Shown here: positions 29,721 to 49,882 of the stretch, in pieces
Layout: every line of letters starts with the position of its first letter
Numbering within the stretch: position 1 is the first letter of the stretch
From: Thermoanaerobaculia bacterium
GTDB lineage: Bacteria; Acidobacteriota; Thermoanaerobaculia; Multivoradales; JAIOJS01
Assembly: GCA_036005845.1 (NCBI GenBank)
Contig: DASYQD010000124.1
Span: 25,024-89,023, forward strand
Length of the DNA stretch: 64,000 nt
Direction of reading: 5' to 3'
Notes under the pieces: generated by a model
Told to the model about the DNA's origin: nothing
Database searches by the model: none
What the model saw: the letters and a program-made list of their open reading frames with translations, nothing else
Made by a program: the position numbers and the translations under genes

Positions 29721-30224
29721 TTAAGTCGCGCTGGGGAAGATGCCCTGCAGGGCGATGCAGTAGCTGAGGGTCAGGAACGGCTGCATGTTCAGGTGGGCCT
29801 GGCTCCCGCCGGTGTTGGTCACCGACCCGGGGTTCAGCGCCACCAGACCGGTAGCGGTCTGGTAGACGTTGTTGACCGTGCGGGCGAGCACGCTCGGATT
29901 GTTCGGGATCGGCACGTTGCCGTCGGTGGGGGACGCCTGCAGCACGTGGGTGTGCTGTGGGAGCTCGGCGATCGACAGGGTGTGCGCCTGCTCGCCGCCG
30001 CGCTCGCCCAGGGTGTGGCCGCTGCCGACGTGGATCGGCACCCGGCCGCGGAGGTCCGGCAGGCCGAAGTTGACGCGGCCGTCGCCTCCGAAGGTGGTGC
30101 CCAGCAGCGAGAACAGGGCCTGGTTCTGGTTGATGGGCAGCAGCTGCCCGTTGCACAACGCCCACCCCTTGGGTGCGAACACAAAGGACATCAGACGGAC
30201 TTCCGAGAGAAACGGCTCTGCCAT
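29721..30224 (-). CDS. Phage tail collar domain protein, paralog 3
   Basis: FLSEVRLMSFVFAPKGWALCNGQLLPINQNQALFSLLGTTFGGDGRVNFGLPDLRGRVPIH..GGEQAHTLSIAELPQHTH. Confidence 0.8.
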   Translation of the reverse strand: MAEPFLSEVRLMSFVFAPKGWALCNGQLLPINQNQALFSLLGTTFGGDGRVNFGLPDLRGRVPIHVGSGHTLGERGGEQAHTLSIAELPQHTHVLQASPTDGNVPIPNNPSVLARTVNNVYQTATGLVALNPGSVTNTGGSQAHLNMQPFLTLSYCIALQGIFPSAT

Positions 30225-30278: not shown

Positions 30279-33200
30279 CTACGGCGCCAGCGGGTTCTGG
30301 CACGTACCGTCGGCCACGGCCGTGTAGGTCGTCGCGTGGGTCGAACGCGCCGTCTGGCCCGCCGGCGTCGGGTTCTGGCCGACGATGAAGTTCTGGATGT
30401 TGGTGTCGTCGGCGGCGTTGCCCGTCAGGCGCTCGAGGTTGTACGTCGAGGTGTCGCGCTGGCGGACCAGGTAGTCCTGGTTGCCGCCCTCGCCGTCGGC
30501 GCTGTTTCCGTTGATGTCGACGCAAAGGTTGCTGTCGTTGCGCGCCTCGATCCGGATGGCGTGCGTCTCCGCCTGGTTGGGGCCGGCGCCGAAGGGGAAG
30601 TCGTCGTCGTCGCTGATCGGGCCGACGGTGTTGCTCCTCACCGTCACGTCGGCGTCGATGTTGCCGGCGACCGCGCTGGGGTCGCGGGTCTGGATGAAGA
30701 TGCCGTTGAGGGCGGTGTTGCGGATGATGTTGCTGCTGACGTTGGCCTTCACCGTCGGCGAGTCCTGCAGGTCGCCGGCGATGCCGAAGAAATTCTCGTT
30801 GCCCGAGCGCGGCGCGCCGACCAGGCCGATGGTGTTGCCCGTTATGTTGATGTCGAAGGTGCCGGTGCCGGCCGGGACGAACGACAGCGCGCTCGCCGAG
30901 CCGCCGTCGTTGGGAGCGATGCCGGTGTAGGCGAGCTGCACGTTGGTGATGTCGTGCCGCTGGATGGAGTTGCCGGTCGAGCTGATGCTGATGCCGAAGT
31001 TGGTGCCCACGCCGTTGCCCCAGGTGGCGCCGGAGGGATCCACGGGCGGCGCGCTGCTCACCATGTCGACGGCGTCGATGTCGCTGAACACCGTGGTGCC
31101 GGCGCCGCCGGTGATGAGGATGCCCGCCGCGGCGTTGTTCTTGACCTGGCCGCCGTTGACCACCAGCTTGACGTTGGCGCTGCCGGTGGCGGTGAGGTTG
31201 ATGCCGGCGTTGCCTTGGCCGACGACACCTTCGCCGGCGTGGTTGAGGTTGGTACCGGTGACGGTGAGCACGCTCTGCCCCGAGCTGCTGTTGGGGTCCC
31301 AGTCGAGGTTGGTGTTGCGCGACTCCTGCACCGTCGAGTTGGTGATGGTGTTGGCGCTGCCGATGAGGTCCTCGATGTGGATGCCGGAGTCCTGGATCGC
31401 GCCGCCCTCGGCCTGGGCGCCGTTGCTGTCCATCCACAGGTTGGTGAGGCTCAGCCCGCTGACGGCATCGATGGAGATGCCGCTGTCGGCGGCGTCGACG
31501 ATCGCCATGTTGCTCAGCGAAGGGTTGGTGGTGGTGAGGAGGAGCACGCCGTCGGCGGTGGTGTTCTGGATGGCACCGCCGGTGCAGGTGCCGACGCTCG
31601 AGCAGCTGCCGCCGTTGGCCTTGACCTTGAGGCCGCCCGAGCCGCCGGTGTTGTTGAGCAGGATGCCGTTGACGGCGCCGTTGGCCGCGACGCTGCGCAG
31701 CTCGATGTTGTTGGCGCTGATGGTGGTGTTGGTGACGGTGAGCGCCGTCCCGGTGGTGGTGGTCAGGGTGTTCACCAGCGCACCGGTCGCACCGGCGTTG
31801 CACGGGTTCTCGTCGCAGACCTCGACGGTGCCGCCGCCGGTGGCCGCGAAGGCGGCATTGGCGCCGGTCGAAGCCGTCAAGCCGCCGCGGAAGCTGATGG
31901 TGGCGCCGGTGTTGGTGGTGAGTGAGATCCCTTGTCCGGTGTCGCTGACCTGACCGGTGAACGCCACCGACGAGCCGCTGTCGGCATTGTTGATGGACAC
32001 CGAGCGGCCGGCGCTGCTGGTGATGGTGCCGCCGTAGGTCGCGGTGAGCACCGTCGTGCCGGCGGCCGAGTTGTCGACCGAGAACGCCGTGCCGCCGCCG
32101 CTCGACTTGGTGATCGAGCTTCCCGACGGCGCCGAGAAGGTGCCGCTCACCGTGGTGAGCGACACGCCGTTGGTGGAGGTGGTGCTCGTCAGCGAGTTGA
32201 GCTGCAGCGTGATGTCGGCGGCGCTGATCGCCGCAGCCGGGCCGGCGGTGGCCACCAGAGTGCCGGCGTTGGCGAGGACGTCGAAATCGAAGCCGCCGGT
32301 GCCGCCGGTCACGCTCAGCGCCGCCCCGCTGTCGGTGAAGATGTCGAGGTCGGTAGCGAAGTTCAACGCACCGGTCACGTTGCTCAGCACGAGGCCGTTG
32401 CCGGCGATGTGATCGCCGGAGGCGCCGATCTGCGTGTTGCCGCCAGGGACCGGCTGGATGGCGCCGCCGGGGGTGACGTCGAAGACCACGGGGTTGGCGC
32501 TGCCGGCCACCGTGATGCCGCCCACCGAGGTGCCCGTCACCACGTTGTCGTTGAAGGCGGTGATAGTGAGCGTCCCCGCCGTGTTCTGAACGTCGGCGGC
32601 GGCGCCGCTGCTGGTGAGCGTGTTGCTGGCCAGCGCCAGCGTCGCGGTGATGCTGGTGCTGCCCTGATTGACGTCGATCCCCTCGGAGGTGGCACCGCGG
32701 ATGGTGTCGTTGCTGATGGTGACGCCGATCGTGTTGGCGCCCGTGGCGGTGACGTCGATGGCGTTGGAGGTGGCGCCGGTGGCCTCGAGGTCGAGGCCGC
32801 GGATCTCGACGTTCTGCCGGTTGCCGGCGGTGGCCGGCACGTTGACGGTATTGGTGCTCGCCACCGTGCTGCGGATCCGCGCCTGGGTCGAGGCGGCCAC
32901 CAGCGAGGTGCCGAAGCCGGGGACGTCGAGGGCGATGCCCTGCCCCCACAGCTTCTGGCCGTTGCGCAGGGTGATGCTGCCGCTGTGCGGCGTGGTGGCC
33001 GTGTTGCCGGCGAAGACGTAGATGATGTCGCCATCGTTGGTCGTGGCGGCGTTGAAGGCCGCGACGCTGTCGAAGGCGTTGGTGGAGCGCCCGTCGCCGC
33101 CGGCGGCGTTGTTGGCATCGATAACGTCGCGGATGTACCAGACCCGCTGGCCGACGGCGACGTTGGCGGTCTGGTTGTTCGTCCCCGCGCCGTCGCTGAG

Positions 33201-36200
33201 CTGGAAGGTGAAGGTGTCGGCGCCGGTGAAACCGACCGCGGGCACGAAGAAGAAGTCGCCGGCGGCCGCGTTGCTGATGGTGAAGGTGCCGCCGTTGGCC
33301 GAGGAGCCCGAGCCGGTGACGACCGTCGTGGCGGCCGGACCGTCGGGGTCGGTCGGGCTGCACTTGGCCAGCAGGCTGGTGGAGTCGGTCCAGGCGGCGA
33401 CGCCCGGGGTCGTCGCGTTGACGTGGAGCTGGGTGTTGCCCGGCGTCGTGTAGTTGACGGTGTTGGCGCAGACCGGCAGGTCGTTGACCGGCGTCACGGT
33501 CACCTGCTTGTCGCCGTTGTTGCTGTTCAGCGCGCCGTCGTTGACGACGAAGCGGACGACGCGGGTGGTGGCGTTGGGGTCCTGGTCGAGGTTGTTGTAG
33601 GTCACCGAGCGCAGGCAGGTCTGGTAGGTGGCCTTGGGCTGGCTGCCGCTGATGCTGAGAGCGGTGGTACCGCCGCCGGTCACCGTGAGGCCGGCGCAGG
33701 AGGTGGCGGCGAGGCTCTCGAAGCTCACGTCGAGGACGTTGGTGATGGTCACCGTCGCCGACGTGAGGTTGGCGTTGTCGACGTCGGTCACGGTGAGGGC
33801 GTTGTCGACGACCACCGCGCCGCCGTCCTCGGTGAAGCTGGTGGCGCCGCCGGAGGTGGTCACCACCGGAGCGTCGTTGACCGGCGTCACCGTCACCGTC
33901 TTGTCGCCGTTGTTGCTGTTGCTGGTGCCGTCGTTGACGACGAAGCGGACGACGCGGTTGGGCGCGCCGGCCGGGTCCTGGTCGGTGTTGTTGTAGGTCA
34001 CCGACTGCAGGCAGGTCTGATAGGTGGCGAGCGGCTGGCTGCCGGTGATGGTCAACGTTGCCGTGCCGCTGCCGCCGACGGTGAACGCGCCGCAGGCGGT
34101 GGCCGCCAGGCTCTCGAAGCCGGCGTCCTGAACGTTGGTGATGGTCACCGTCGCCGAGGCGAGGTTGGCGTTGTCCACGTCGCTGACGGTGACGCCGGAG
34201 TCGACGACGACGGCGCCGGCGTCCTCGGTGAAGCTGGTGTTGCCGCCGGTGGTGGTGACGACCGGCGCGTCATTGACCGCGGTCACCGACACGTTCTTGG
34301 TCGCCGGCGCGCTGGAGAGGGCGCCGTCGTTGGCGACGAAGGAGATCACTCGCGTCGTCGTGCTGGGGTTGTTCGAGGTGTTGTTGTAGCGCGCCGACTG
34401 CAGGCAGGCCTGGTAGGTGGCCAGCGGCTGGCTGCCGCTGATGTTGAGCGTCGACGTGCCGCTGCCGCTCACCGTCAGCGCGCCGCAGGCGGTGGCGGTG
34501 AGCTGCTCGGAGGCGCCATCGAGCACGTTGGTGATGGTCACCGTGGCCGAGGCGAGGTTGGCGGAGTCGACGTCGGTGACGGTGACGCCGGAGTCGATCA
34601 CCACGGCGCCGGCGTCCTCGGTGAAGGCGGTGGTGCCGCCGGTGGTGGTGACCACCGGCGCGTCGTTGACCGCCGTCACGGTGACGTTCTTGGTGGCGGG
34701 CGCGCTGGAGAGAGCGCCGTCGTTGGCCACGAACGAGATGACCCGCGTCGTGGTGTTGGGGGTCTGCGAGGTGTTGTTGTAGGTCACCGACTGCAGGCAG
34801 CTCTGGTAGGCGGCCGGCGTCTGGCTGCCGGTGATGGTCAGGGTGGGAGTGCCGCTGCCGCCGACGGTGAACGCGCCGCAGGCGGTGGCCGCCAGCGCCT
34901 CGGAGCCGACGTTCAGCACGTTGGTGATGGTCACCGTGGCCGAGGCGAGGTTGCCGCTGTCGGGGTCGACGACGGTGACGCCCGAGTCGACGACCACCGC
35001 GCCGCCGTCCTCGGTGAAGGCGGTGTTGCCGGCAGTGGTGACGACGATCGGCGCGTCGTTGGACGGCGTGACGCTGACGTTCTTGGTGGCCGGCGCGCTA
35101 CTGGCGGCTCCGTCGCTGGCGACGAACGAGATCACCCGCGTCGTGGTGTTGGGGGTGTCCGAGGTGTCGTTGTAGGTCACCGACCGCAGGCAGGTCTGGT
35201 AGGTCGCAGGCGGCTGGCTGCCGCTGATGGCGAGGATCGAGGTGCCGGCACCGCCGACCGTCAGGCCCGCGCAGGAGGTGGCGTTGAGCTGCTCGAAGGC
35301 GCCGTCCTGCAGGTTGGTGATGGTCACCGTCGCCGAGGCGAGGTTGGCGGAGTCGACGTCGGTGACGGTGACGCCGTTGTCGACGACGACCGCGCCGGCG
35401 TCCTCGATGAAGGCGGTGGTGCCGCCGGTGGTGGTGACCACCGGCGCGCTGTTTACCGCCGTCACCGTCACCGTCTTGTTGGCCGTGTTGCTGGGCAGCG
35501 CGCCGTCGTTGGCGACAAAGGAGATGACGCGCGCCGTCGTGCCCGGGTCGAGGTCGGTGTTGTTGTACGTCACCGACTGCAGGCAGGCCTGGTAGGTGGC
35601 CGGCGGCTGGCTGCCGGTGATGGTGAGCGTCGGGGTGCCGCTGCCGCCGACCGTGAGCGCGCCGCAGGCGGTGGCGGCGAGCGCCTCGAAGCCGACGTCC
35701 TGCACGTTGGTGATGGTCACGGTGGCCGAAGCGAGGTTGGGGCTGTCGACGTCGGTCACGGTGACGCCGGAGTCGACGACCACCGCGCCGCCGCCCTCGG
35801 TGAAGGAGGTGCTGCCGCCGGTGGTGGTGACGACCGGGGCGTCGTTGACCGCCGCCACCGACACGCTCTTGTTGGCGGGAGCGCTGCTCGCGGCGCCGTC
35901 GTTGGCGAGGAAGGAGATCACCCGCGTCGTGGTGTTGGGATCCTGGTCGGTGTCGTTGTAGGTCACCGAGCGCAGGCAGGTCTGGTACGTCGCCAGCGTC
36001 TGGCTGCCGCTGATGGTGAGGGTGGCCGTGCCGCTGCCGCCCACCGTCAAGCCGCCGCAGGCGGTGGCGGCGAGCGCCTCGGAGCCGACGTCCTGCACGT
36101 TGGTGATGCTGACCGTCGCCGAGGCGAGGTTGGCGGAATCGACGTCGGTGACGGTGAGGCCGCTGTCGATCGTCACCGGCCCGCCGTCCTCGGTGAAGGC

Positions 36201-39020
36201 GGTAGTCCCGCCGGTGGTGGTGACCACCGGAGCGTCGTTGACCGGAGCCACCGTCACCGTCTTATTGGCGGTATTGCTGTTGTTGGTGCCGTCGTTGGCG
36301 ACGAACGAGATCACGCGCGCCGTGTTGTTGGGGTCCTGGTCGGTGTTGTTGTAGGTCACCGAGCGCAAGCAGGTCTGGTAGGTGGCCAGCGGCTGGCTGC
36401 CGCTGATGCTGAGGGTTGCGGTGCCGCTGCCACCGACGGTCAAGCCGGCGCAGGAGGTGGCGGCGAGCGCCTCGAACCCGACGTCCTGCACGTTGGTGAT
36501 GGTCACCGTCGCCGAGGCGAGATTGGCGGAGTCGGCGTCGGTCACCGTCAGGCCGCTGTCGATGGTCACCGCGCCGCCGTCCTCGGTGAAGGCGGTCGAG
36601 CCGCCGGTCGTCGTCACCACCGGCGCGTTGTTGACCGCGGCCACGCTCACCGTCTTGTTGGCGGGCGCGCTGTTGGCCGTGCCGTCGTTGGCGACGAACG
36701 AGATCACGCGGTTGGTGGTGTCGGGGTCCTGGTCGGTGTTGTCGTAGGTCACCGAGCGCAGGCAGGTCTGATAGGTGGTGAGCGGCTGGCTGCCGCTGAT
36801 GGTGAGCGTGGCCGTGCCGCTGCCGCCGACCGTCAGGGCGCCGCACGCCGTGGCGGCGAGCTGCTCGGAGCCGGCGTCGAGCACGTTGGTGATGGTCACC
36901 GTCGCCGAGGCGAGGTTGGCGTTGTCGACGTCGGTCACCGTCACGCCGGCGTCAACGACGATCGCGCCGCCGCCCTCGGTGAAGGCGGTGGTGCCGCCGG
37001 TGGTGGTCACCACCGGGGCGTCGTTGACCGGCGTCACCGTCACCGTCTTGTTGGCCGGCGCGCTGCTGTTGGTGCCGTCGTTGGCGACGAACGAGATGAC
37101 GCGCGCGGTGGCGTCGGGATCCTGGTCGGTGTTGTTGTAGGTCACCGACTGCAGGCAGGTCTGGTAGACGGCGAGCGGCTGCGTGCCGCTGATGGTGAGG
37201 GTGGGCGTGCCGCTGCCGCCCACCGCGAGCGCGCCGCAGGCGGTGGCGGCGAGCTGCTCAGAGCCGGCGTCGAGCACGTTGGTGATGCTCACCGTCGCCG
37301 AGACGAGGTTGGTGTCGTCGGGATCGGTCACCGTCACGCCGGCGTCGACGACGACGGCGCCGCCGTCCTCGGTGAAGGAGGTGGAGCCGGCCGTGGTGGT
37401 CACCACCGGGGCGTCCGGGCTGGCCGCCACGGTCACCGTCTTGTTCGCCGGCGCGGAGCTCGCGACGCCGTCGTTGACGAGGAAGGAGACCACGCGCGCC
37501 GTGGTGCTCGGGTTGTTCGAGGTGTCGTCGAAGGTCACCGACTGCAGGCAGGTCTGGTAAGTGGCGAGCGGCTGGCTGCCGGTGATCGACAGCGTGTTGA
37601 GGCCCGGCGTCACCGTCAGCCCGGCGCAAGCGGTTCCCGCGAGCACCTCGGAGGCGCCGTCCTGCGGGTTGGTGATCGTCACCGTCGCCGAGGCGAGGTT
37701 CGGCGAGTCGACGTCGGTCACCGTCACGCCGTTGTCGATCACCACCGGCCCGCCGTCCTCGGTGAAGGCGGTGCTGCCGGCGGTCGTGGTCACCACCGGC
37801 GCGTCGTTGTTCGGCGTCACGTTGACCGTCTTGTTGCCCGGTGCGCTGTTGACAATGCCGTCGTTGGCGACGAAGGCGACCGTGCGCGGCGTGGTGCCCG
37901 GCGTGTTCGAGGTGTCGTTGTAGGTGACCGAGCGGAAGCAGGTCTGGTAGGTGGCGGGCGGCTGGCTGCCGGTGATGCTCAGGCTGTTGAGGCCGGGCGT
38001 CACGGTGAGGCCGGCGCAGGCGGAGGCGGCGAGGGTCTCGAGCGCGCCGTCCTGTGGATTCGTGATCGTCACCGTGGCGGAGGCGAGGTTCGCGCTGTCG
38101 GCGTCGGTGACGGTGATGCCGGAGTCGACGACGACCGCCGGGCCGTCCTCGGTGAACGTCGTCGCGCCGGGCGTCGGCGTCACCACCGGCGGCGTGTTGA
38201 AGACCAGCGAGGCGTCGATGCGGAAGTAGACGCGGGCGCTGGGGACGTCGCTGCGCGCGTACAGCGACGCGATGTCGTCGCCGTCGTTCTGCGCCGTGGG
38301 GTCGAAGGCGACGCGGAAGCCGACGTTCCACTCCTGGAGCGTGTTGCCGTCGAGGTCGAAGACGACGGCGTAGGCGACGCCGCCCGCGGCGAGCACCAGC
38401 AGCACGAGGAGCAGCGCGCGCAGCGGCCGCCGGCGCAGCTTGAACGCCGCCATCCCGGCGAGCAGCAGGATGAGGGCGAGCAGGCCCCACTGCGACAACG
38501 TCGGAATGTCGGGAGTGCCGCCGAGGATGAAGAGGATCGGCGGCCCGGTGGGCGTGCCGTCGGTGGTGAAGAGCGTGTCGGTGCCGCCGTTGGCGTTCTG
38601 GGCGAAGACGCCGAGGCGGAGGCAGTTGGCCTGCGAGGCGCCGTGGCAGGGGAAAAGCGGCGGCGGCGATATCGCAACCATCGGCCAGAAGGTCTCGATG
38701 ACGTTGAGGCCGAGGTCGCCGTTGCCGATGCCGACCGGATGCGGGGTGGTGTCGGAGAAGATCGACGCGTTGGCGCAGTCGCGGCCCTGGATCTGCGTCA
38801 CCGTCGCCGCGTTGGGCGAGGTGGTGGTGTTCACCGTGGTGACGACCTTCTGGTCGTAGCCCAGGAAGCCCGACGGGCCGTCGTTGCAACCCGTCGCCGG
38901 GTTGTTGTCGAAGTCGATGAAGATCGTCAGGTCGGACTGCACCGCCGCCGCCGGAGCGGCGAGGCCGATCGTGATCAGCGTTGCGGCGAGCAGGGCGGGA
39001 ACGAAGTGGATGCGTCGCAT
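30279..39020 (-). CDS. Giant (2913 aa) secreted surface protein. It carries an N-terminal signal peptide, a ~170-aa domain ending in an IPTL-CTERM-like segment, about 12 tandem ~130-aa repeats, and a C-terminal parallel beta-helix region.
   Basis: The single ORF has a signal peptide (MRRIHFVPALLAATLITIGLAAPAAA), the IPTLSQWGLLALILLLAGMAAFKLRRRP motif at aa 172-199, and repeats of the type NDAPVVTTTGGTTAFTEDGGAVVVDSGVTVTDVDSANLASATVTITNV.DAGSE.LAATACG.LTVGGSGT.TL.ISGSQPLATYQTCL.SVTYNNTDQDP...RVISFVANDG...SAPANKTVTVTPV. The C-terminal ~900 aa are rich in short G/N/T/S beta-helix rungs. Confidence 0.8.
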   Translation of the reverse strand: MRRIHFVPALLAATLITIGLAAPAAAVQSDLTIFIDFDNNPATGCNDGPSGFLGYDQKVVTTVNTTTSPNAATVTQIQGRDCANASIFSDTTPHPVGIGNGDLGLNVIETFWPMVAISPPPLFPCHGASQANCLRLGVFAQNANGGTDTLFTTDGTPTGPPILFILGGTPDIPTLSQWGLLALILLLAGMAAFKLRRRPLRALLLVLLVLAAGGVAYAVVFDLDGNTLQEWNVGFRVAFDPTAQNDGDDIASLYARSDVPSARVYFRIDASLVFNTPPVVTPTPGATTFTEDGPAVVVDSGITVTDADSANLASATVTITNPQDGALETLAASACAGLTVTPGLNSLSITGSQPPATYQTCFRSVTYNDTSNTPGTTPRTVAFVANDGIVNSAPGNKTVNVTPNNDAPVVTTTAGSTAFTEDGGPVVIDNGVTVTDVDSPNLASATVTITNPQDGASEVLAGTACAGLTVTPGLNTLSITGSQPLATYQTCLQSVTFDDTSNNPSTTARVVSFLVNDGVASSAPANKTVTVAASPDAPVVTTTAGSTSFTEDGGAVVVDAGVTVTDPDDTNLVSATVSITNVLDAGSEQLAATACGALAVGGSGTPTLTISGTQPLAVYQTCLQSVTYNNTDQDPDATARVISFVANDGTNSSAPANKTVTVTPVNDAPVVTTTGGTTAFTEGGGAIVVDAGVTVTDVDNANLASATVTITNVLDAGSEQLAATACGALTVGGSGTATLTISGSQPLTTYQTCLRSVTYDNTDQDPDTTNRVISFVANDGTANSAPANKTVSVAAVNNAPVVTTTGGSTAFTEDGGAVTIDSGLTVTDADSANLASATVTITNVQDVGFEALAATSCAGLTVGGSGTATLSISGSQPLATYQTCLRSVTYNNTDQDPNNTARVISFVANDGTNNSNTANKTVTVAPVNDAPVVTTTGGTTAFTEDGGPVTIDSGLTVTDVDSANLASATVSITNVQDVGSEALAATACGGLTVGGSGTATLTISGSQTLATYQTCLRSVTYNDTDQDPNTTTRVISFLANDGAASSAPANKSVSVAAVNDAPVVTTTGGSTSFTEGGGAVVVDSGVTVTDVDSPNLASATVTITNVQDVGFEALAATACGALTVGGSGTPTLTITGSQPPATYQACLQSVTYNNTDLDPGTTARVISFVANDGALPSNTANKTVTVTAVNSAPVVTTTGGTTAFIEDAGAVVVDNGVTVTDVDSANLASATVTITNLQDGAFEQLNATSCAGLTVGGAGTSILAISGSQPPATYQTCLRSVTYNDTSDTPNTTTRVISFVASDGAASSAPATKNVSVTPSNDAPIVVTTAGNTAFTEDGGAVVVDSGVTVVDPDSGNLASATVTITNVLNVGSEALAATACGAFTVGGSGTPTLTITGSQTPAAYQSCLQSVTYNNTSQTPNTTTRVISFVANDGALSSAPATKNVTVTAVNDAPVVTTTGGTTAFTEDAGAVVIDSGVTVTDVDSANLASATVTITNVLDGASEQLTATACGALTVSGSGTSTLNISGSQPLATYQACLQSARYNNTSNNPSTTTRVISFVANDGALSSAPATKNVSVTAVNDAPVVTTTGGNTSFTEDAGAVVVDSGVTVSDVDNANLASATVTITNVQDAGFESLAATACGAFTVGGSGTATLTITGSQPLATYQTCLQSVTYNNTDQDPAGAPNRVVRFVVNDGTSNSNNGDKTVTVTPVNDAPVVTTSGGATSFTEDGGAVVVDNALTVTDVDNANLTSATVTITNVLDVSFESLAATSCAGLTVTGGGTTALSISGSQPKATYQTCLRSVTYNNLDQDPNATTRVVRFVVNDGALNSNNGDKQVTVTPVNDLPVCANTVNYTTPGNTQLHVNATTPGVAAWTDSTSLLAKCSPTDPDGPAATTVVTGSGSSANGGTFTISNAAAGDFFFVPAVGFTGADTFTFQLSDGAGTNNQTANVAVGQRVWYIRDVIDANNAAGGDGRSTNAFDSVAAFNAATTNDGDIIYVFAGNTATTPHSGSITLRNGQKLWGQGIALDVPGFGTSLVAASTQARIRSTVASTNTVNVPATAGNRQNVEIRGLDLEATGATSNAIDVTATGANTIGVTISNDTIRGATSEGIDVNQGSTSITATLALASNTLTSSGAAADVQNTAGTLTITAFNDNVVTGTSVGGITVAGSANPVVFDVTPGGAIQPVPGGNTQIGASGDHIAGNGLVLSNVTGALNFATDLDIFTDSGAALSVTGGTGGFDFDVLANAGTLVATAGPAAAISAADITLQLNSLTSTTSTNGVSLTTVSGTFSAPSGSSITKSSGGGTAFSVDNSAAGTTVLTATYGGTITSSAGRSVSINNADSGSSVAFTGQVSDTGQGISLTTNTGATISFRGGLTASTGANAAFAATGGGTVEVCDENPCNAGATGALVNTLTTTTGTALTVTNTTISANNIELRSVAANGAVNGILLNNTGGSGGLKVKANGGSCSSVGTCTGGAIQNTTADGVLLLTTTNPSLSNMAIVDAADSGISIDAVSGLSLTNLWMDSNGAQAEGGAIQDSGIHIEDLIGSANTITNSTVQESRNTNLDWDPNSSSGQSVLTVTGTNLNHAGEGVVGQGNAGINLTATGSANVKLVVNGGQVKNNAAAGILITGGAGTTVFSDIDAVDMVSSAPPVDPSGATWGNGVGTNFGISISSTGNSIQRHDITNVQLAYTGIAPNDGGSASALSFVPAGTGTFDINITGNTIGLVGAPRSGNENFFGIAGDLQDSPTVKANVSSNIIRNTALNGIFIQTRDPSAVAGNIDADVTVRSNTVGPISDDDDFPFGAGPNQAETHAIRIEARNDSNLCVDINGNSADGEGGNQDYLVRQRDTSTYNLERLTGNAADDTNIQNFIVGQNPTPAGQTARSTHATTYTAVADGTCQNPLAP
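33500..38210 (-). repeat. About 12 tandem coding repeats of ~390 bp (~130 aa) within the giant gene
   Basis: Periodic recurrence of the NDAPVV...FTEDGG...VTDVDS...TYQTCL...VANDG block. The ~280-420 bp periodicity is also visible in the spurious plus-strand ORFs at 33628, 34135, 34417, 34831 ... 37951. Boundaries are approximate. Confidence 0.7.
38424..38507 (-). other. Internal IPTL-CTERM-like sorting motif (IPTL + TM helix + RRR), followed by a second signal-peptide-like segment
   Basis: aa 172-199 of the giant ORF read IPTLSQWGLLALILLLAGMAAFKLRRRP. This is followed by LRALLLVLLVLAAGGVAYA|VVFD, with a possible ATG at ~38453. Confidence 0.5.
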
Positions 39021-43060: not shown

Positions 43061-43771
43061 TCACCCGGCGACGGCGATCGGCGCGGCGGCCTCCTCGAGC
43101 TCGCGCTCGTAGAGCTGCGAGGCGCGCTCGCAGATGATGGACATGTAGTTCATTGTGGTGAGCAGCTGAGTGAATCCCTGAACCAGGGCGAAGACCTCGA
43201 TCGACGTGTCGTGCAGTCTGGCGGCGCGGGCGGACAGCGTCACTGCTCGCGCCCGCGTTGCTTCGTCGATGAACGTGCGCAATCGACTCTGCAGTTGCCG
43301 TAGCTGACGATCGAGCAGGCGCAGGCCGGCGCGGGCTCCACCCTCCCGAATGCGGGTCGCGATCTCGGTCCAATACACGCGTTGCGGCAGCGCCGCTCCG
43401 CGGCTGACGAGGTCTTGATAGAGACCGTCGTAGTCGAGGGCGGCGAAGCACGGTTCGCGTGCGATCAGCGGATCGACAGGGTCGATCTTGCCGCGCTCGA
43501 AAAGGTCGGCGCGCGATTGGACGAGCTCCTGTCCGAGGACGGTGAGCTGTTCGTGCGTCACGGCCAGCTGTGCGAGGCCGCGCTCGAGAGCTGCCGCCGA
43601 CGAGGCCGCATCGCCGGCGAGGGCTTCGTCCACGGCCTCGTGCAGATCGCGAAGGCCAAGGCTCAGAGCCAGGTTCGACTCGCGAAAGCTGCGGTCGAGC
43701 ATCCTGCAACGGCGCTCGAGCGTCTCTGAAAAGGCGTTGCTGCAACTGACCGAGAATCCAAACATGCACAT
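43061..43771 (-). CDS. Hypothetical cytoplasmic protein
   Basis: ORF without recognisable motifs. An internal ATG start was chosen to drop an Arg-rich leader. Lies between fdhD and the CHAT gene. Confidence 0.35.
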   Translation of the reverse strand: MCMFGFSVSCSNAFSETLERRCRMLDRSFRESNLALSLGLRDLHEAVDEALAGDAASSAAALERGLAQLAVTHEQLTVLGQELVQSRADLFERGKIDPVDPLIAREPCFAALDYDGLYQDLVSRGAALPQRVYWTEIATRIREGGARAGLRLLDRQLRQLQSRLRTFIDEATRARAVTLSARAARLHDTSIEVFALVQGFTQLLTTMNYMSIICERASQLYERELEEAAAPIAVAG

Positions 43772-43956
43772 CGGACCTCCGCCACCCATGGTTCTTCTCC
43801 TCTCTGTGCGACGTTTTTGACCACCGGGGAAGGACGAGGCGAGGCGGGCCGCCCGTGGCGGCCCCCGAGCGTCGGCGACAGGGGATCTCGCGAACATGAG
43901 AACCGCCGCTGACGCCGAGTCGATCCTCGACTCGGTGGTGGCGAGGCGCTTGGTGT

Positions 43957-46900
43957 TCAGCCGCCGAGGGCTTGGAACAAAGCCCAATTCGCAGGCGAGC
44001 GGAGAGCAGGGTCGGGGCTGGCGAGGAGCTGTAGCTGCGCCGAGCGCAGCGCGCTGGCGGCATCTTCGCCGGAGCTCAACCGAGTGTGGAGGGCGGTGAG
44101 GAGCGGCACGCTACGCTGGTCGCCTACGGGCCACAGCGCCGCTACGACCGTCGGCACGTTCGCGGCCAGGAATGAACGGGCCAGGCTGACCCTCCCGGCG
44201 GTGCCGGACAGAGGATCGCCGGTTCCGCCGCAGACCGCCAATACGACGGTCCGCGTGCGCGCGAATGACAGCGAGGGGATCTCATCCGCGTAGAGCGCCC
44301 CGCTGCCGTCGCCGGGCTGCAGCGGTGCCAAGGCGAGCGCGGAGCGCGATGGGAGGGCGTCGTCGACCAGCGCATGGGTGGCGACGTGGACGACCGAGTG
44401 ATCGCCCATCGCGGCCACGAGGGTGCTGCGCGTCGCTCGCTCCCCGGTGACCACGACGGCGCCCCGGTACAGCGCCGCGACGGCGCGCACCTCGTCTGCG
44501 GCTCCGGAGAGGCGCTGAAGGCCGGGGAAGAGATGGTCGTCGAGCGCCGGATCGCCGAGCAGGAACGGTGGTGTGCGCTGCCCTTGCGATAGTGCGATTT
44601 CGCGTGCACGAGCGTGAACGAAGTAACTGGCGCTCGGCGCCAGCTCGAGAACGTGCTCCTGCATGAGGAACTTGTGGCGCGCGCCGCCGAGCGCCGAGAA
44701 GGGCAACGACTCGAGGCTCTTGTCGGCAACGATCACCAGCCTACGGGCGGTGTCGGCGAGCTCGGCAGGAGCCACCAGCGTACGGTACAGCTCCGCCGCC
44801 GCCTCGTCGCTCGCCGGAGTCCAGGTGCCCGCGGTGAGATCGGCGTCGATGATCGCGCTCCATGCGGCGACCTGCGCCGGCCGCACGGGCAGCGTGATCG
44901 TCCGCACGCCGCGGTGATCGGCCCGCCAGAGCACCGCGCGCTCACCGAGCAAGGCGTACGACAACACGGCCGTCTCCGTGTCCAGAGCAGCCGGGAGCTC
45001 GGCGAGGCCGATGTTCTGGATGCTCGCGGTCGAGCCTAGGGAGTGGGCGCGCGCTCGCTCGATCCAGTCGAATGCTTCCGCGGTGCGGCCGCGATCGAGG
45101 GCCGCGGCAGCCATCTCGTCGTAAAGCCTGCCGGCGCCGTCCAGGCGGTCGAGCCAGAGCAAGTCGTGGGGAGCGGCCGGCGTCGACTCCAGTAGCGAGA
45201 TGCCCTCCGCGAGGTCTCGCGCCGCGGCGTCGAAGTCGCCGTCGGCGCGGTGGGCGTTCGCACGCTGCAGGAACAGGCCTGGAAGGCGAACGCTCTGCTG
45301 AAGCTGCTCGAAACCGGCAAGGGCGCGGGACGAGGCGGCGATGGCGATGGCGGGCGAGCCTGCCGTCGCAGCTCTGACCGCTGCCAGTTCCGGAAGGAGT
45401 CGCGTACGCATTGCGGAGTTGTCTACCGACGAGAGCGCCACGGCTGCACGGCCAACCTCGACGGCTGCGGAACCGTGGTCGTCGAGCTGCAACGCTATTT
45501 GCGCACGGCGTAGATGGAGGGTTACCAGTTGATACGGCCGAAGAGTCGCACTCTGCGTCGAGGCTTCGTCGAGCAAGGCGCTGGCGAGGTTGACGTGGCC
45601 GAGCAGAAGGCACGAGGTTGCCGTCTGCAGGAGAATGTTCTGCGCTCGTTGCGGGTCGTCGCCCAGACTGGGCACGCCGGCAATCCCCGCAATCCGGTGC
45701 TGCCAAGCGTTGCGCTGATCGCCGGCGAGCGTGTACGCCTCGCCGAGGAGGTAGTCGAGCCAGATCACGGGCTCGTCCTCGCCGACGAGCCGATAGGCGG
45801 CCATCGCCGACTGGTAGTGGCCGATGGCTTCGCTCGGCCGGCCCCGTAGCGTCGCCGCGAGGCCACGCGCCTGGGCAAGCCTGCCGCGACTGACCGGATC
45901 AGTTTCCTGCGCTCCGGCGCTGCGGTCGATCTCGGCGATGAGCCCGTCGCTGGGGCCCGCGCTGACCAGGCGAATGGCGAGCAGCTCGACTTGCGCTCGC
46001 CGAAGGCCGATGCCGTCGTGGGGGAACGAGGAAACGGCAAGTCGGAGGTGATCCTCGGCGCCGCGCCAAGACCCTTCCTCTAGAAGCAGCTCCCCTTGGG
46101 CCAGCGAGCGTTGTGCCTCGGCAAGCAAGCGTAGCGACACCCGATCGGAGGTTGTCGCCTCGTCGATCTGATCCTCGAGACGGGAGTCGCCTGTCTGTTG
46201 GCGATAGAGATTGGCGATCCTCGAGGCCGTGGCCAACAGTTGGGTGGCGGCTGACTCATCGCCCTGGACTATCGCGTCGCCCCAGTCGCGCAGCAGGTCG
46301 TGCTCGACTAGTCGTCGTGCCGCGAAGCGGTGGGCAGCGACCAGTGCGGGCAACTCCCGGTCGCCACGCTCGGCCGCGCGGCGCAATGTAGGCGTGCTGG
46401 CGCCGCTGGGCGTGCGACCAAATCTCGCCAGGTGCGTCCTCGCCTCGCCTCGCCAATGCGCGTCGGTCTCCAGCTCTCCGTAGTCGGTCCACGCGCGAAT
46501 TGCTTCGGCCCGAAGTCCGAGCAGCTCGAGCGCGATGGCCTGGTTGAACTTTGCCTCCAGTAGGGCGGGCGCGGAACGAAGGGCAGCCGACGCGAGCTCC
46601 AGTGCGGCGGCGGCATCCGCAGAACCGCCGTCCTGCATGCCGCGAGCGAGATAAACGGCGGCGAGGTCGCTCCGCAGGCCGGGGTCGGAGGGGCGCGCGG
46701 CGAGGGCGCGACCGAGAGTGGCAAGCGCAGAATCGAGATTGCCGACGAGATAGTGCGCGTCGGCGAGCGCGCCAAGCGTCTCCGGTTGACTGGAAGTGAC
46801 CGCGGCTTGGCGCACGGCTTCGGCGGCTGCGTAATAGCGCCAGGCGTCAGCGCCGCCGTTGCTTGCAGAAATGCCCCTCTTCACCTCCGTTACCGGCGCC

Positions 46901-47250
46901 CAGTGGAACCCTCCCGTGAGCCGCGGCAACAGCGGCCGCGCTTCCGCCGTCGCGGCGATCAGCGGCGCGCGCGGGTTGGTTCGCCAGGGCGCCTCCTCGC
47001 CGCGGGTCGCCATCCACAGCGCCGCCGGCACCGCCACCATGACCACTGCCGCCGCGGCCACCCACCGTCCGGGCGCACCCTCCCGCTGCGGCGGCGGCAG
47101 GGCGCACGCCTGGAAGCGCATGGCGTCCGCCATGGCGTTGCCGCAGCGGTCGCAGCCCGCGAGGTGTTCCTCGAGGCGCTCGCGCTGTTCGGGGAAGAGC
47201 TGGCCGTCGAGGTAGGCGGCCAGGCGCTCGGGCTCAGGACAGCGGGGCAA
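43957..47250 (-). CDS. Anti-sigma factor (zinc-finger) / transmembrane / TPR-like / CHAT-domain (caspase-like protease) fusion protein
   Basis: The N-terminus has the zinc-binding anti-sigma motif (EEHLAGCDRCGNAM). A single TM helix follows (WVAAAAVVMVAVPAALWMA). A ~700-aa helical-repeat region follows. The C-terminal CHAT-like domain carries candidate catalytic His (VVHVATHALVDD) and Cys (TVVLAVCGGTGD). The start lies 17 nt downstream of the ECF sigma gene stop. Confidence 0.7.
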   Translation of the reverse strand: MPRCPEPERLAAYLDGQLFPEQRERLEEHLAGCDRCGNAMADAMRFQACALPPPQREGAPGRWVAAAAVVMVAVPAALWMATRGEEAPWRTNPRAPLIAATAEARPLLPRLTGGFHWAPVTEVKRGISASNGGADAWRYYAAAEAVRQAAVTSSQPETLGALADAHYLVGNLDSALATLGRALAARPSDPGLRSDLAAVYLARGMQDGGSADAAAALELASAALRSAPALLEAKFNQAIALELLGLRAEAIRAWTDYGELETDAHWRGEARTHLARFGRTPSGASTPTLRRAAERGDRELPALVAAHRFAARRLVEHDLLRDWGDAIVQGDESAATQLLATASRIANLYRQQTGDSRLEDQIDEATTSDRVSLRLLAEAQRSLAQGELLLEEGSWRGAEDHLRLAVSSFPHDGIGLRRAQVELLAIRLVSAGPSDGLIAEIDRSAGAQETDPVSRGRLAQARGLAATLRGRPSEAIGHYQSAMAAYRLVGEDEPVIWLDYLLGEAYTLAGDQRNAWQHRIAGIAGVPSLGDDPQRAQNILLQTATSCLLLGHVNLASALLDEASTQSATLRPYQLVTLHLRRAQIALQLDDHGSAAVEVGRAAVALSSVDNSAMRTRLLPELAAVRAATAGSPAIAIAASSRALAGFEQLQQSVRLPGLFLQRANAHRADGDFDAAARDLAEGISLLESTPAAPHDLLWLDRLDGAGRLYDEMAAAALDRGRTAEAFDWIERARAHSLGSTASIQNIGLAELPAALDTETAVLSYALLGERAVLWRADHRGVRTITLPVRPAQVAAWSAIIDADLTAGTWTPASDEAAAELYRTLVAPAELADTARRLVIVADKSLESLPFSALGGARHKFLMQEHVLELAPSASYFVHARAREIALSQGQRTPPFLLGDPALDDHLFPGLQRLSGAADEVRAVAALYRGAVVVTGERATRSTLVAAMGDHSVVHVATHALVDDALPSRSALALAPLQPGDGSGALYADEIPSLSFARTRTVVLAVCGGTGDPLSGTAGRVSLARSFLAANVPTVVAALWPVGDQRSVPLLTALHTRLSSGEDAASALRSAQLQLLASPDPALRSPANWALFQALGG

Positions 47251-47267
47251 CGGCCCCCTCGCCCGGC

Positions 47268-48131
47268 CTAGCTTTGGTGGCGATCGTCGTCGGCATCGTC
47301 CTGCTTAGACGGACGCGCCGCCTCGGATTCCCCCTCGTTGGCGAGACCGAAGTCCAAAGTCGGTCCCCGCTGGAGCAGCCGGGAGACGTCGTGGCGCTCG
47401 ACGCCCGCCTCGCGCAGGTCGCGCTTGATGCTCTTGAGGATGCTGGTGAGGCGCTTGTAAAGCGCCTTTTGCGGCACTCTCATGCCGCGCGCCGCCTCGG
47501 CCACTGACAGGCCGTCGCTGAAGTGGAGGCGGAGGAGCAGGCGGTCCTGGGCGCGCAGCCGGCGCAGGCTCGCCGCCACGGCGCGGGTGACCTCGTCCTC
47601 TTCGGCGCGCTGAACCAGGGTGTCTTCGTGGTTCGGCGAGGGCTCCGGCTCGGCCACCTCGTCGGCGCCGAGCGGCTGGGTGCGCGGGCGGCCGGGGCGC
47701 GGCGGCAGCTGGGCGTAGAGGCGCGTCAGCTCTCCGGGGCCGACGTTGAAACGAACGCCGAGCACCTGGCAGGCCTCGGCGAAGGTGAGCCCTTCGCGGT
47801 AGAGCAGCTCCTCGAGCGCCTCCGCCACCGGCCCCAGGCGGAGCGCGGCGGCCGAGGCGCGCCACTTGCCCCAGAGCTGATTGCAGTAGTCGTGGAAGAG
47901 ACGCTGCACGACGACGGTGAGGTACGTGCGCAGCGTGCTGTGCTGCCGCCAGCTGCGCAGGGTCTCGTAGTCGTCCTCCACCAGGCGCAGACGGACGAAC
48001 GACTCGAGCTCTTCGGTCTGCTCGGCGTTGAGCCGGTAGCGGCGCGCGAGGAAGCCCACCAGGTCGCGCAGCAGCGACAGGTTGGCGAGCAACAGCTCGC
48101 GCGGGCTCAAGTCCGACGACGCGGCACCCAT
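47268..48131 (-). CDS. ECF-type RNA polymerase sigma factor (sigma-70 family)
   Basis: Region 2 (LVEDDYETLRSWRQHSTLRTYLTVVVQRLFHDY) and region 4 (LRAQDRLLLRLHFSDGLSVAEAARGMRVPQKALYKRLTSILKSIKRDL). Start at internal ATG 48131. Confidence 0.75.
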   Translation of the reverse strand: MGAASSDLSPRELLLANLSLLRDLVGFLARRYRLNAEQTEELESFVRLRLVEDDYETLRSWRQHSTLRTYLTVVVQRLFHDYCNQLWGKWRASAAALRLGPVAEALEELLYREGLTFAEACQVLGVRFNVGPGELTRLYAQLPPRPGRPRTQPLGADEVAEPEPSPNHEDTLVQRAEEDEVTRAVAASLRRLRAQDRLLLRLHFSDGLSVAEAARGMRVPQKALYKRLTSILKSIKRDLREAGVERHDVSRLLQRGPTLDFGLANEGESEAARPSKQDDADDDRHQS

Positions 48132-48286
48132 CCCGGGGCCCCTTGGAGTCCGCCCGGCCATCCGGTTTGTCGATGGAACCGGGCGCCGGACGGACGATTC
48201 GAAGCGTGAAACGAGATTGTACGCGAGAAACGTCGCGCCGGGACGGGTGGAATTTCGATCTTCGCGGCCGTCTAAGCGGGGGAGCG

Positions 48287-49882
48287 ATGCACACCGAGAC
48301 GACGCCACCACCGTCTTGTCCGTCCCGCGACGTCGAAGGCGCGCCCGTCGACGCGCTCCAGGGACGGCCCGAGATGGCCGAGGCGCTGGTCCGCAGCAGC
48401 CTCGACGGCATCATCAGCATCGACCGTTCGGGCCGGGTGCGGGTGTGGAACCCGGCGATGGAGCAGCTCAGCGGTCTCGTCGGCGCGACCTGTGTCGGTG
48501 CTCCGCTCGAGAGCGTGCTCGAACGGCTCGGCGCGCCCGACCTGCTGCCCTACTTCCGCCGCGCGCTGGCGGGAGAGAAGGTGGCGGCGCCGCGGCGCCA
48601 TCTGGCGCGCCCCGACGGCGGCGAGCTGACGCTCGAAGGGCACTATGCGCCGGTGCTCGACGCCGGCGGCACGATCGGCGGCGCGCTCTGCGTGGTGCGC
48701 GACGTCAGCGCGCAGGAGCAGCTCGAGGAGCAGCTCTTGCAGGCGCAGAAGATCGAGGCGGTCGGCCAGCTCGCCGGCGGCGTCGCCCACGACTTCAACA
48801 ATCTGCTGACCGTCATCCTCGGCTACTGCGAGCTGGCCGAGCTGCGGGTGGAGGAGAGCTCCGGCGTGCGCGGCGACCTGGGCGAGATCCGCCGCGCCGC
48901 CGCGCGCGCCGCGGCGCTGACGCGCCAGCTCCTCGCCTTCTCGCGCAAGCAGGTGCTGCAGCCGGAGGTGGTCTCTCCCAACGACGAGGTGCGCGAGCTC
49001 GAGCAGATGCTGCGCCGACTGATCGCCGAGAACGTCGAGCTCAGCACCAGTCTGGCGCCCGATGCCGGCCGCGTGCTGGTGGACCGCAACCAGCTCCACC
49101 AGGTGCTGGTCAACCTGCTGGTCAACGCGCGCGACGCCATGCCCGGCGGTGGGCGGCTGCTCATCGAGACGCGCAACCGCGAGCTCGACGACGCCTACGC
49201 GCAGGTGCACCCCGGCGCGCGGCCGGGCTCGTACGTGATGATCGCGGTGAGCGACACCGGCACCGGCATGGACGAATCGGTGCGCAGCCGGATCTTCGAG
49301 CCGTTCTTCACCACCAAGGAGCGCGGCAAGGGCACCGGGCTCGGGTTGTCGATGGTCTACGGCGTCGTCAAGCAGAGCGGCGGCTACATCTGGGTCTACA
49401 GCGAGCCGGGCCACGGCACCACCTTCAAGCTCTTCCTGCCGCGCGTCGACACGGCGGCGGAGGCGCGCCAGGCGCCGGCGCCCAGCCGCGACGCGCTCGA
49501 GGGCGGCGAGGCGGTGCTGGTGGCGGAGGACGAAGAGGTGGTGCGCGGCCTCGTCGTGCGTCTCCTCGAGCTGCGCGGCTACCGTGTCGTGGAAGCCGAC
49601 CGCGGCGAAACGGCGCTGGCGGCGGCCGCGGCCACGTCCGACCTGGAGCTCCTGATCACCGATGTGGTGATGCCCGACATGAGCGGCCGTGAGCTTGCCG
49701 ACCGGCTGCGGCGCCTGCGGCCCGGCCTCAAGGTGCTGTTCGTCTCCGGCTACACCGACGAGTCGATCGCCAACCACGGCGTGCTCGATCCCGGCGTCGA
49801 GCTGCTCGAGAAGCCGTTCACCGCCGACGTGCTGGCGCGCCGGGTGCGGGCAATCCTCGACGGGGCCGACGAGCCGCGTTAG
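48287..49882 (+). CDS. PAS-domain hybrid sensor histidine kinase / response regulator
   Basis: A PAS domain is followed by HisKA (H-box [14 protein letters not shown]), HATPase_c (N-box [10 protein letters not shown]; G-boxes DTGTGMD, GTGLGLS) and a REC domain ([13 protein letters not shown]...KPF). Confidence 0.85.

Follow-up and report, generated by a model that had tools for sequence, protein, structure and literature searches.

How a caspase-like domain on the outside of a cell can be joined to the control of transcription inside it is the question raised by a two-gene locus in a 64-kb stretch of DNA from a Thermoanaerobaculia bacterium (Acidobacteriota; contig DASYQD010000124.1), which is referred to below as the window (G+C ~71%). 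On the minus strand of the window a gene for a sigma-70-family factor of 287 amino acids (aa; 47268..48131) is followed by a gene (43957..47250) for a 1097-aa transmembrane (TM) anti-sigma factor with an extracytoplasmic TPR-CHAT region. The sigma open reading frame (ORF) ends at 47268, and the 17-nt spacer before the anti-sigma start (GCCGGGCGAGGGGGCCG) contains a GAGG-type Shine-Dalgarno sequence. The original prediction for this stretch had given the order, strand and gap exactly. It had also supposed that no protease-coupled anti-sigma factor had been described, which turned out to be mistaken, as the DdvA/DdvS pair of Myxococcus xanthus (MXAN_7288/7289), described in 2018 (NAR; PMC6061681) and 2024 (Sci Adv; PMC11506125), already has this architecture. 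The locus represents a remote variant of the DdvA/DdvS design in the Acidobacteriota and is not categorically new. Its wiring is apparently different, with another sigma family as partner.

The anti-sigma factor and its domains

The 1097-aa product is an anti-sigma factor that crosses the membrane once. Its gene starts with TTG, and this start is taken to be real because the first residues, M..CP(E/D).E.LAAYLDG, are conserved among homologs. The public record of an identical protein (P0001, from a Thermoanaerobaculia metagenome-assembled genome) starts at Met40, has 1058 aa and omits 47134-47250. The NCBI entry for the sigma factor has the same start as ours and is named 'hypothetical protein'. 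As the Met40 start drops the zinc-finger motif and the sigma factor is without a telling name, the pairing of sigma and anti-sigma is invisible in the database record.

At the N-terminus (aa 1-50; 47101..47250, minus strand) lies a zinc-binding anti-sigma (ZAS) domain, which was recognized by Pfam zf-HC2 at aa 8-36 with 30.5 bits against a cut-off of 22.2. The motif HLAGCDRCGNAM is found at aa 29, and the ligands C4, H29, C33 and C36 are each conserved to at least 90% in 33 homologs. In an AlphaFold2 (AF2) model of the monomer (predicted local distance difference test (pLDDT) 85.2, predicted template-modelling score (pTM) 0.83, low confidence at aa 50-88 and 105-133) this part forms a three-helix bundle with helices at aa 7-14, 20-32 and 34-49. 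This cytoplasmic, zinc-bound domain has the features expected of a sequestering domain for the sigma factor encoded 17 nt upstream. A single TM helix follows at aa 63-83 (47002..47064, minus strand; Kyte-Doolittle 2.09), which is the sole 19-residue window above 1.6 in the whole protein and is modelled as a helix at aa 68-83. Both the zinc-finger anti-sigma motif and the one TM helix had been foreseen from the start.

The TM helix is connected by a linker to a helical TPR-like scaffold and superhelix (aa 134-755; 44986..46851, minus strand), for which TPR_14 scored above its Pfam cut-off and TPR families matched at ~aa 157-200. The AF2 model shows ~36 helices here with a pLDDT mostly at or above 85. 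The helical repeats described in the original prediction are thus present, but their length is ~620 aa and not ~1000 aa. The C-terminal CHAT (caspase-like) domain (aa 757-1097; 43960..44982, minus strand) was matched by Pfam CHAT (PF12770) at aa 816-1096 (E 6.1e-46, 157.6 bits, profile positions 2-288 of 289). The candidate catalytic residues are His959 in VHVATHA (from aa 954; codon 44374-44376) and Cys1007 in LAVCGG (from aa 1004; codon 44230-44232), both codons having been checked on the minus strand. The domain has an alpha/beta fold in the AF2 model, in which His959 and Cys1007 each follow a predicted strand. Judged by this full-length profile match with the catalytic His and Cys in place, it is a member of the clan CD caspase-like peptidases. 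Full-length homologs that are 45-55% identical keep all of these domains.

Homology to DdvA

DdvA is likewise a single-pass protein. Its cytoplasmic zinc-binding domain of ~70 residues has CHCC ligands, and ddvS, the gene for its cognate sigma factor of the extracytoplasmic function (ECF) type, lies directly upstream of ddvA (PMC6061681; PMC11506125). The periplasmic region of ~900 residues has a separase/craspase-like TPR-CHAT fold with a His862-Cys907 dyad, and structures are available as PDB 8ROT, 8RW5 and 8RLZ (PMC11506125). In DdvA-type factors the assembly is a dimeric 'arrow', and the active site of CHAT, which has no three-helix motif, is turned to the linker of the partner. When the anti-sigma protein of the window was searched as a single sequence against the PDB, 8ROT_B was found with an E of 1.9e-7 through collinear N-terminal and CHAT stretches. 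With a profile of the 33 homologs the best match among the PDB sequences was again DdvA (8ROT_B, E 1.9e-37). In the alignment H29, C33 and C36 coincided with H28, C32 and C35 of DdvA, and H959 and C1007 with H862 and C907, so that the C-terminal CHAT domain with a His/Cys dyad, as first read, found its counterpart in a protein of known structure.

The comparison of folds gave the same result. Foldseek matched the AF2 model of the anti-sigma protein best to DdvA (8RW5/8ROT, E 2.4e-19), with a template-modelling score of 0.56 normalised to the target over ~1000 aligned columns, scaffold and TPR part included, at an identity of ~18%; separase and Csx29 were the next-best folds in the PDB (E ~1e-10 to 1e-12). 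The outer TPR-CHAT region is homologous to that of DdvA in sequence and in fold. Besides, the two proteins share the order of their parts, i.e. a CHCC zinc anti-sigma domain, a TM helix, a flexible linker, a TPR scaffold and a CHAT domain with His and Cys, and the sigma gene is directly upstream on the same strand in both loci.

The topology follows from several considerations. The ZAS domain must meet the sigma factor in the cytoplasm, so that it would be located inside and the TPR-CHAT region outside. An outside location of the TPR-CHAT region is also indicated because paralogs that lack the ZAS domain begin with lipobox or signal-anchor sequences. The same topology was found when the homologous DdvA was solved, which lends it further support (PMC11506125). 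On these three grounds the extracytoplasmic placement of the caspase-like domain, which had been assumed before, can be retained.

A conserved juxtamembrane motif

Between the TM helix and the scaffold a juxtamembrane motif, LIAAT..R..PRLTGGFxWA (aa 97-118; 46897..46962, minus strand), was found in the linker, of which aa 105-133 have a pLDDT below 50 in the AF2 model; the flexible linker of DdvA is likewise of low confidence. L97, R110 and G114 are invariant, and R105, L111, T112 and F115 are conserved to at least 90%. In its longer form, LIAA..R..PRLTGGFxWAP, it is the most conserved linear element of the family, and it is common to relatives with a ZAS domain, to those without one and to relatives that have lost the dyad.

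Distribution of the family and pairing with sigma genes

A protein search yielded ~50 full-length metagenomic homologs with both zf-HC2 and CHAT, and one scan of the GTDB species representatives gave 283 relatives. The best 80 of these 283 were almost all Acidobacteriota (Thermoanaerobaculia and Vicinamibacteria), several genomes having multiple copies. For the study of gene order a set of 92 CHAT ORFs in fetched loci was classified with hidden Markov models. A ZAS motif followed by a TM helix was present in 47 of the 92. In 44 of these 47 ZAS-type relatives a homolog of the window sigma factor was encoded directly upstream on the same strand. The remaining 45 CHAT ORFs have no ZAS domain and begin at a membrane or signal segment, many of them lipobox-like, and such a sigma gene was near only three of them. 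This split, together with the exported paralogs, supports both the pairing with the sigma factor and the extracytoplasmic position of TPR-CHAT. The synteny of sigma and anti-sigma-CHAT genes, a survey of which had been put forward with the original prediction, is therefore conserved in the surveyed loci, to which the check was confined. The distribution suggests that the anti-sigma factor arose by fusion of a ZAS domain to an exported TPR-CHAT protein.

Some relatives of the anti-sigma or of the sigma factor were binned outside the Acidobacteriota, i.e. in Chloroflexi (L029), Acidimicrobiia (L074), Bacterium HR33 (L047) and Gemmatimonadota (P0163 and P0169), which may reflect a true spread or a binning error. 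Split versions were also encountered (L059, 5715-6665 and 2491-5664, both on the minus strand; L083, 6792-7634 and 9647-12748; also L061 and L074), in which a short ORF encodes the ZAS domain together with the TM helix and the first scaffold, and a separate ORF has TPR-CHAT. The two ORFs are contiguous or overlapping in L061 and L074, which may be due to frameshifts.

The window protein and all its near relatives have retained the His/Cys dyad, as have ~89 of the 92 ORFs of the survey. In one Vicinamibacterales-like clade (P0022, P0025, P0026, P0028 and others; L003, L004 and L063) both His and Cys are lost, and the sigma pairing, the promoter sites discussed below and the linker motif are still present. 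The loci of this clade (L003, 13292-18253; L004, 13297-19316; L063) are closely related and count as a single observation. Three genes follow the anti-sigma gene there, which encode a 316-aa protein with a twin-arginine translocation (Tat)-type signal, a peptidase of the S9/DPP-IV type and a protease of the PrsW family. In Bacillus, PrsW acts as the site-1 protease of RsiW. Divergently from the module, this clade encodes a receiver-domain protein; a PhyR-like reading of this protein in L003 was considered and rejected, as the receiver domain alone was detected.

The sigma partner

The sigma gene (47268..48131, minus strand) has an alternative ATG at 48161. Its product consists of an ECF-like sigma2 domain (~aa 18-87), an extra helical domain (aa 88-141), a disordered linker (aa 142-167), a sigma4 domain (aa 168-241) and a disordered tail (aa 256-287), and was modelled by AF2 with a pLDDT of 86. 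The family model TIGR02937 scored 42.8 against a cut-off of 42.9, and Sigma70_r4_2 23.4, below its gathering score of 25.7. Across 43 members of the family Pfam found Sigma70_r4_2 in 38, Sigma70_r2 in 13 and Sigma70_ECF in seven, and no match to region 3 in any.

The extra domain is a conserved insert of ~55 aa between sigma2 and sigma4 (GKWRASAAALRLGP...EELLYREGLTF.EA; 47709..47870, minus strand). In the 43 sequences G88, W90, S93, R98, G100 and A120 are invariant, and the stretch WGKWRxSAxAxRLG...LE.L..RDG between sigma2 and sigma4 is shared invariantly by the homologs, which are 250-340 aa long. Four helices (aa 94-99, 101-112, 117-128 and 132-141) were predicted in the insert with a pLDDT of ~90 or higher. 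Given this predicted four-helix insert, the protein is not of the kind that has only sigma2 and sigma4 with a short unstructured linker. In Foldseek the top matches were the three-domain sigma factors SigD, sigma32, SigB, sigmaS and FliA, slightly ahead of ECFs and with modest scores (E 1e-4 to 2e-3). A single-sequence search of the sigma factor against the PDB gave no match; its profile matched only sigma4 and, weakly, sigma2, the latter aligning with region 2.2-2.3 of AlgU. By these models the protein belongs to the sigma-70 family, with ends that resemble those of ECFs and a folded domain added between them, and is not a minimal ECF. The designation 'ECF sigma' of the original prediction is thus only partly right, and by its TIGR02937 score the factor is a borderline ECF. 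It agrees with the ECFs in its predicted promoter sites and in the adjacent anti-sigma gene.

When the profile was run against 1.84 billion cluster representatives, 1,865 proteins (50%-identity clusters) were retrieved at E<=1e-30. The sigma family is large and essentially unnamed. One 370-aa homolog (P0111) has an N-terminal extension with ETHLDVCEPC, an HxxxCxxC motif, before its sigma domains, possibly an anti-sigma-like segment that was fused to the sigma factor or wrongly called.

Predicted promoters and wiring

Plain k-mer counting and two-block enumeration upstream of the sigma genes were swamped by GC-rich words, and it was the AT-containing 7-mer TAGACGG, recurring upstream of sigma genes in distant clades, that revealed a motif. 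On the opposite strand it reads GGAAT(T)/GAGAAC-N15-16-CGTCTA(A/T), the classical pattern of an ECF promoter, for which an AAC-like -35, a CGT in the -10 and a spacer of ~16 nt are typical, and it points to the divergent gene. A reading on the sigma strand, TTAGAC-N17-TTCCAC, was rejected, as it had no acceptable -10 and the reverse strand was a textbook ECF promoter. Exact copies of GGAAT-N15-CGTCTAA occur twice in the window against 0.05 expected. The spacing AA-N16-CGT is shared with the DdvS promoters, which were reported as GTAA-N16-CGT (PMC6061681).

One of the two promoter-like sites (GGAATCCGAGGCGGCGCGTCCGTCTAA; 47305..47331, minus strand) falls within the 3'-terminal 64 nt of the sigma gene, its end being 54 nt before the TTG of the anti-sigma gene. 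It scored 27.6 bits with a position weight matrix (PWM) trained on other sites only, i.e. on divergent sites and one site in L074, with no internal sites of anti-sigma genes among them. Of the 45 distinct ZAS-type genes, 14 have a site at this fixed distance (105-156 nt before the His codon of the ZAS domain), where the overall density of PWM hits would lead one to expect 0.16. The -35 and -10 overlap the G-E-S and R-P-S-K codons of the disordered tail of the sigma factor. The peptide 'GE[SN]...RPS(K)', conserved at the sigma C-terminus (47268-47340), coincides with the -35 and -10, and it looks like this otherwise odd conservation is driven by the DNA signal. The codons used at the motif positions are rare, GAA, CGT and TCT making up 12%, 6% and 3% of their synonymous sets in the window, which argues for selection at the DNA level.

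The second ECF-type site (GGAATTTCGATCTTCGCGGCCGTCTAA; 48249..48275, plus strand) faces the divergent gene for a cytoplasmic hybrid histidine kinase (48287..49882, plus strand), the start of which was inferred from orthologs. Pfam and NCBIfam gave the order PAS-HisKA-HATPase-REC for this protein, as it had been described before. Its ATG at 48287 is 11 nt past the -10. The divergent orientation of the site is conserved at 11-12 loci from distant clades, where it precedes PAS kinases or REC proteins, and the hybrid kinase is by this sequence pattern a predicted target of the sigma factor. Elsewhere the genes behind such sites encode the anti-sigma factor, PAS kinases, receiver proteins (L003, L004 and L063), a sigma54 activator, other ZAS proteins and proteins of unknown family.

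Further strong copies of GGAA-N16-CGTCTA were seen in L010 (2321-2351 and 15418-15507), L047 (7702-8822 and 15205), L026 (9572-10578), L011 (9153) and L012 (193 and 6023). They are followed by genes for an endonuclease/exonuclease/phosphatase-family protein, a sigma54 activator, other ZAS proteins and CHAT paralogs without a ZAS domain.

For the sigma gene itself a weak candidate for a housekeeping-type -10, TACAAT (48216..48221, minus strand), is conserved in five near orthologs (the window, L001, L005, L006 and L009). A scan with the generic sigma-70 consensus found no full promoter, and the terminator search gave one weak hairpin.

Neighbouring genes

Downstream of the anti-sigma gene, after a 169-nt gap, a conserved all-helical protein of 242 aa and of unknown family is encoded (43061..43789, minus strand). 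It is 60% identical to the neighbour in the ortholog locus L001, and its gene follows the CHAT gene in eight loci, including three paralogous modules in each of two genomes. This recurrence implies that it is probably part of the module, and it is probably co-transcribed with the anti-sigma gene. No match to the protein was obtained in Pfam, NCBIfam, PADLOC or the PDB, and no signal peptide was found. A downstream gene shared across clades had been considered and was rejected, as the 242-aa protein and the 316-aa Tat-signal protein of the dyad-less clade are unrelated.

The other neighbours are FdhD, an aldehyde dehydrogenase, an E1 dehydrogenase/transketolase-like protein, an ATP-dependent DNA ligase and SspB, and the same housekeeping neighbours are present in L001. 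Family searches and PADLOC revealed no defence genes, CBASS (cyclic-oligonucleotide-based anti-phage signalling system) and CRISPR-Cas included, within ~10 kb on either side. No candidate for a site-1 protease was seen near the locus in the window, and no gene for a site-2 protease in the whole 64 kb.

At some distance in the window a giant ORF (30279-39020, minus strand; 2913 aa) contains a 393-bp unit repeated 11.9 times with 81% identity (repeats at 33472-38156). It has matches to bacterial cadherin-like domains and a weak one to IPTL-CTERM, its region is strongly GC- and AT-skewed, and it probably encodes a giant repetitive surface protein. The adjoining gene (29721-30224, minus strand) encodes a protein of 167 aa in which a phage tail collar domain was recognized (E 4.8e-27).

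A proposed mechanism and its alternatives

It seems rather probable to us that the locus is a sigma/anti-sigma switch of the DdvS/DdvA type with self-cleavage by the CHAT domain, feedback through two promoters and a link to a phosphorelay. Basal transcription would supply both sigma and anti-sigma factor, and the ZAS domain would hold the sigma factor in the cytoplasm. The outer TPR-CHAT region would sense a cue in the envelope, probably a bound protein or peptide, and would meanwhile block access of a site-2 protease. Upon the cue the bulky outer region would be removed, presumably by a His959/Cys1007 self-cleavage in the flexible juxtamembrane linker as was proposed for DdvA, after which the site-2 protease could cut the membrane stub and free the sigma factor. 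Self-cleavage is favoured here because the dyad is retained and a conserved motif is present in the disordered linker. The logic of intramembrane proteolysis is taken from the observation that DdvA without TPR-CHAT was degraded in an RseP-dependent manner in M. xanthus (PMC11506125). Free sigma factor may then transcribe from GGAAT-N15-CGTCTAA promoters, as the conserved promoter-like sites lead us to infer. The promoter within the 3' coding tail of the sigma gene would drive the anti-sigma gene, and probably the 242-aa gene too, and so provide negative feedback. The other would drive the divergent PAS hybrid kinase and feed the signal into a phosphorelay.

Several points weigh against this switch. 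Even for DdvA, self-cleavage by CHAT is proposed but unproven; DdvS continues to be repressed by the H862A and C907A variants, and a trigger is not known (PMC11506125). The clade that lost the dyad has kept the pairing and the motif, so catalysis cannot be essential for the anti-sigma function in the family and the motif cannot simply be a self-cleavage site. With respect to the wiring, the region upstream of the sigma gene yielded no ECF-type site on the same strand, so that expression of the sigma factor would rest on the weak TACAAT match. The promoter sites are computational predictions, and sites of at least 17 bits are present at only ~1/3 of the loci. As the kinase ATG is 11 nt past the -10, either a near-leaderless mRNA or a later start codon would be needed. 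Several paralogous sigma factors in one genome also seem to share the motif, which raises the question of cross-talk. Finally, the signalling steps given above are deduced from the sequence and from the analogy with DdvA.

The first of these points lead to a different view of the outer region. It could be that CHAT is not the acting protease and that TPR-CHAT senses a ligand and sterically obstructs the site-2 protease, the cut being made upon a signal by a separate site-1 protease (DegS-, Prc- or PrsW-like). This is possible, if clearly less probable than self-cleavage, and it has to be given substantial weight because a whole subclade without the dyad maintains sigma pairing, promoter sites and linker motif. 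The PrsW-family protease and the S9 peptidase encoded just downstream in that subclade would fit such a role. The dyad mutants of DdvA remained anti-sigma factors, and its active site was described as incomplete and resting (PMC11506125). The retention of the dyad in the window protein, its near relatives and nearly all surveyed ORFs implies selection for catalysis, however, and a candidate gene for the site-1 protease is missing near the locus.

Alternatively, the CHAT protease might act on other envelope or secreted proteins, in processing or as an effector, the anti-sigma domain reporting its occupancy or state inward. The many stand-alone exported TPR-CHAT paralogs (lipoproteins or signal-anchored), which have an intact dyad and no sigma gene nearby, suggest that the TPR-CHAT module has an envelope role of its own, and several of them are preceded by the same promoter motif (L011 and L012). 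Yet no substrate candidate could be identified, the 242-aa neighbour lacks a signal peptide and the closest characterised relative, DdvA, was interpreted as a sensor (PMC11506125), which makes this option improbable for the window locus.

That the module regulates phage defence as DdvA/DdvS does, or is an abortive-infection effector gated by sigma release as the original prediction had allowed, is very improbable, for in spite of the homology to DdvA, with its CBASS/CRISPR-Cas island as regulon (PMC11506125), and of a weak PADLOC match of CHAT to BovA (E 1.2e-7), defence genes are absent from the ~10 kb to either side, the locus is syntenic with housekeeping genes in its orthologs, the predicted targets in related loci are kinases, receivers, a sigma54 activator, anti-sigma factors and proteins of unknown family, and only a subset of the DdvA-like pairs is near defence systems according to the DdvA authors themselves. 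Judging from its gene context, the module at this locus would not be tied to phage defence.

Relation to known systems

The switch proposed here differs from DdvS/DdvA in a number of respects. DdvA-like anti-sigma factors were reported from Myxococcota and one Comamonas species, whereas the host here belongs to the Acidobacteriota (Thermoanaerobaculia) and is thus beyond that range. DdvS is a minimal ECF of 182 aa with a disordered 29-aa linker (PMC11506125); compared with this published description, the 287-aa sigma factor of the window has a C-terminal tail and an insert that is folded and conserved. DdvS autoregulates the entire ddvS-ddvA operon, whereas the promoter predicted here is within the sigma gene and would drive the anti-sigma gene only, and a second predicted promoter would drive the divergent hybrid kinase. 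In contrast to DdvS/DdvA, CBASS and CRISPR-Cas are absent from the vicinity, and unlike DdvA some relatives of the window protein have no dyad.

The TPR superhelix combined with a CHAT domain and a His-Cys dyad is shared with Csx29 (craspase, type III-E CRISPR) and with separase. Csx29 and eukaryotic separase, however, are cytoplasmic or nuclear monomeric proteins without an anti-sigma domain or TM helix, and their activation depends on RNA-guided complexes or on the control of the cell cycle. With the ZAS factors RsrA, ChrR and RslA the N-terminus shares the HxxxCxxC motif with a fourth ligand upstream and the helical domain that binds sigma2 and sigma4, and weak matches to RsrA (TIGR03988) and to 3HUG_B were recorded. 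RsrA, ChrR and RslA are small or have other C-terminal domains, and several respond to the cytoplasmic redox state. To our knowledge no ZAS factor other than DdvA has a protease-like outer domain.

In the regulated intramembrane proteolysis of RseA (DegS/RseP) and RsiW (PrsW/RasP), and with the self-cleaving anti-sigma factors RsgI and FoxR, a single-pass protein has to lose its outer region before a site-2 protease sets the sigma factor free, as would also hold for the window protein. The initial cleavage in those systems is carried out by another protease or occurs non-enzymatically within the protein, whereas the window protein, as was put forward for DdvA, contains a caspase-like domain of its own. 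We know of no characterised anti-sigma factor with a caspase-like outer domain other than DdvA so far.

Only tentatively could one go further and regard the acidobacterial modules as a distinct signalling system and not as simple orthologs of DdvA/DdvS. Such a system would be defined by an unnamed sigma family, a promoter in the coding tail that feeds back on the anti-sigma factor only, a caspase-like sensor coupled to a phosphorelay, and PRLTGGF as a site of CHAT cleavage or docking.

Among the Acidobacteriota the DdvA-type design is common, and a genome often has several copies of it, so that a family that was thought to be narrow is now wider. With the locus a large unannotated sigma family has come to light, and also a compact arrangement in which a predicted promoter is embedded in the coding tail of the sigma gene itself. 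The natural variants of the family, i.e. the stand-alone exported paralogs, the split versions and the dyad-less clade, together with the invariant linker motif, are handles with which CHAT can be tested as a built-in site-1 protease.

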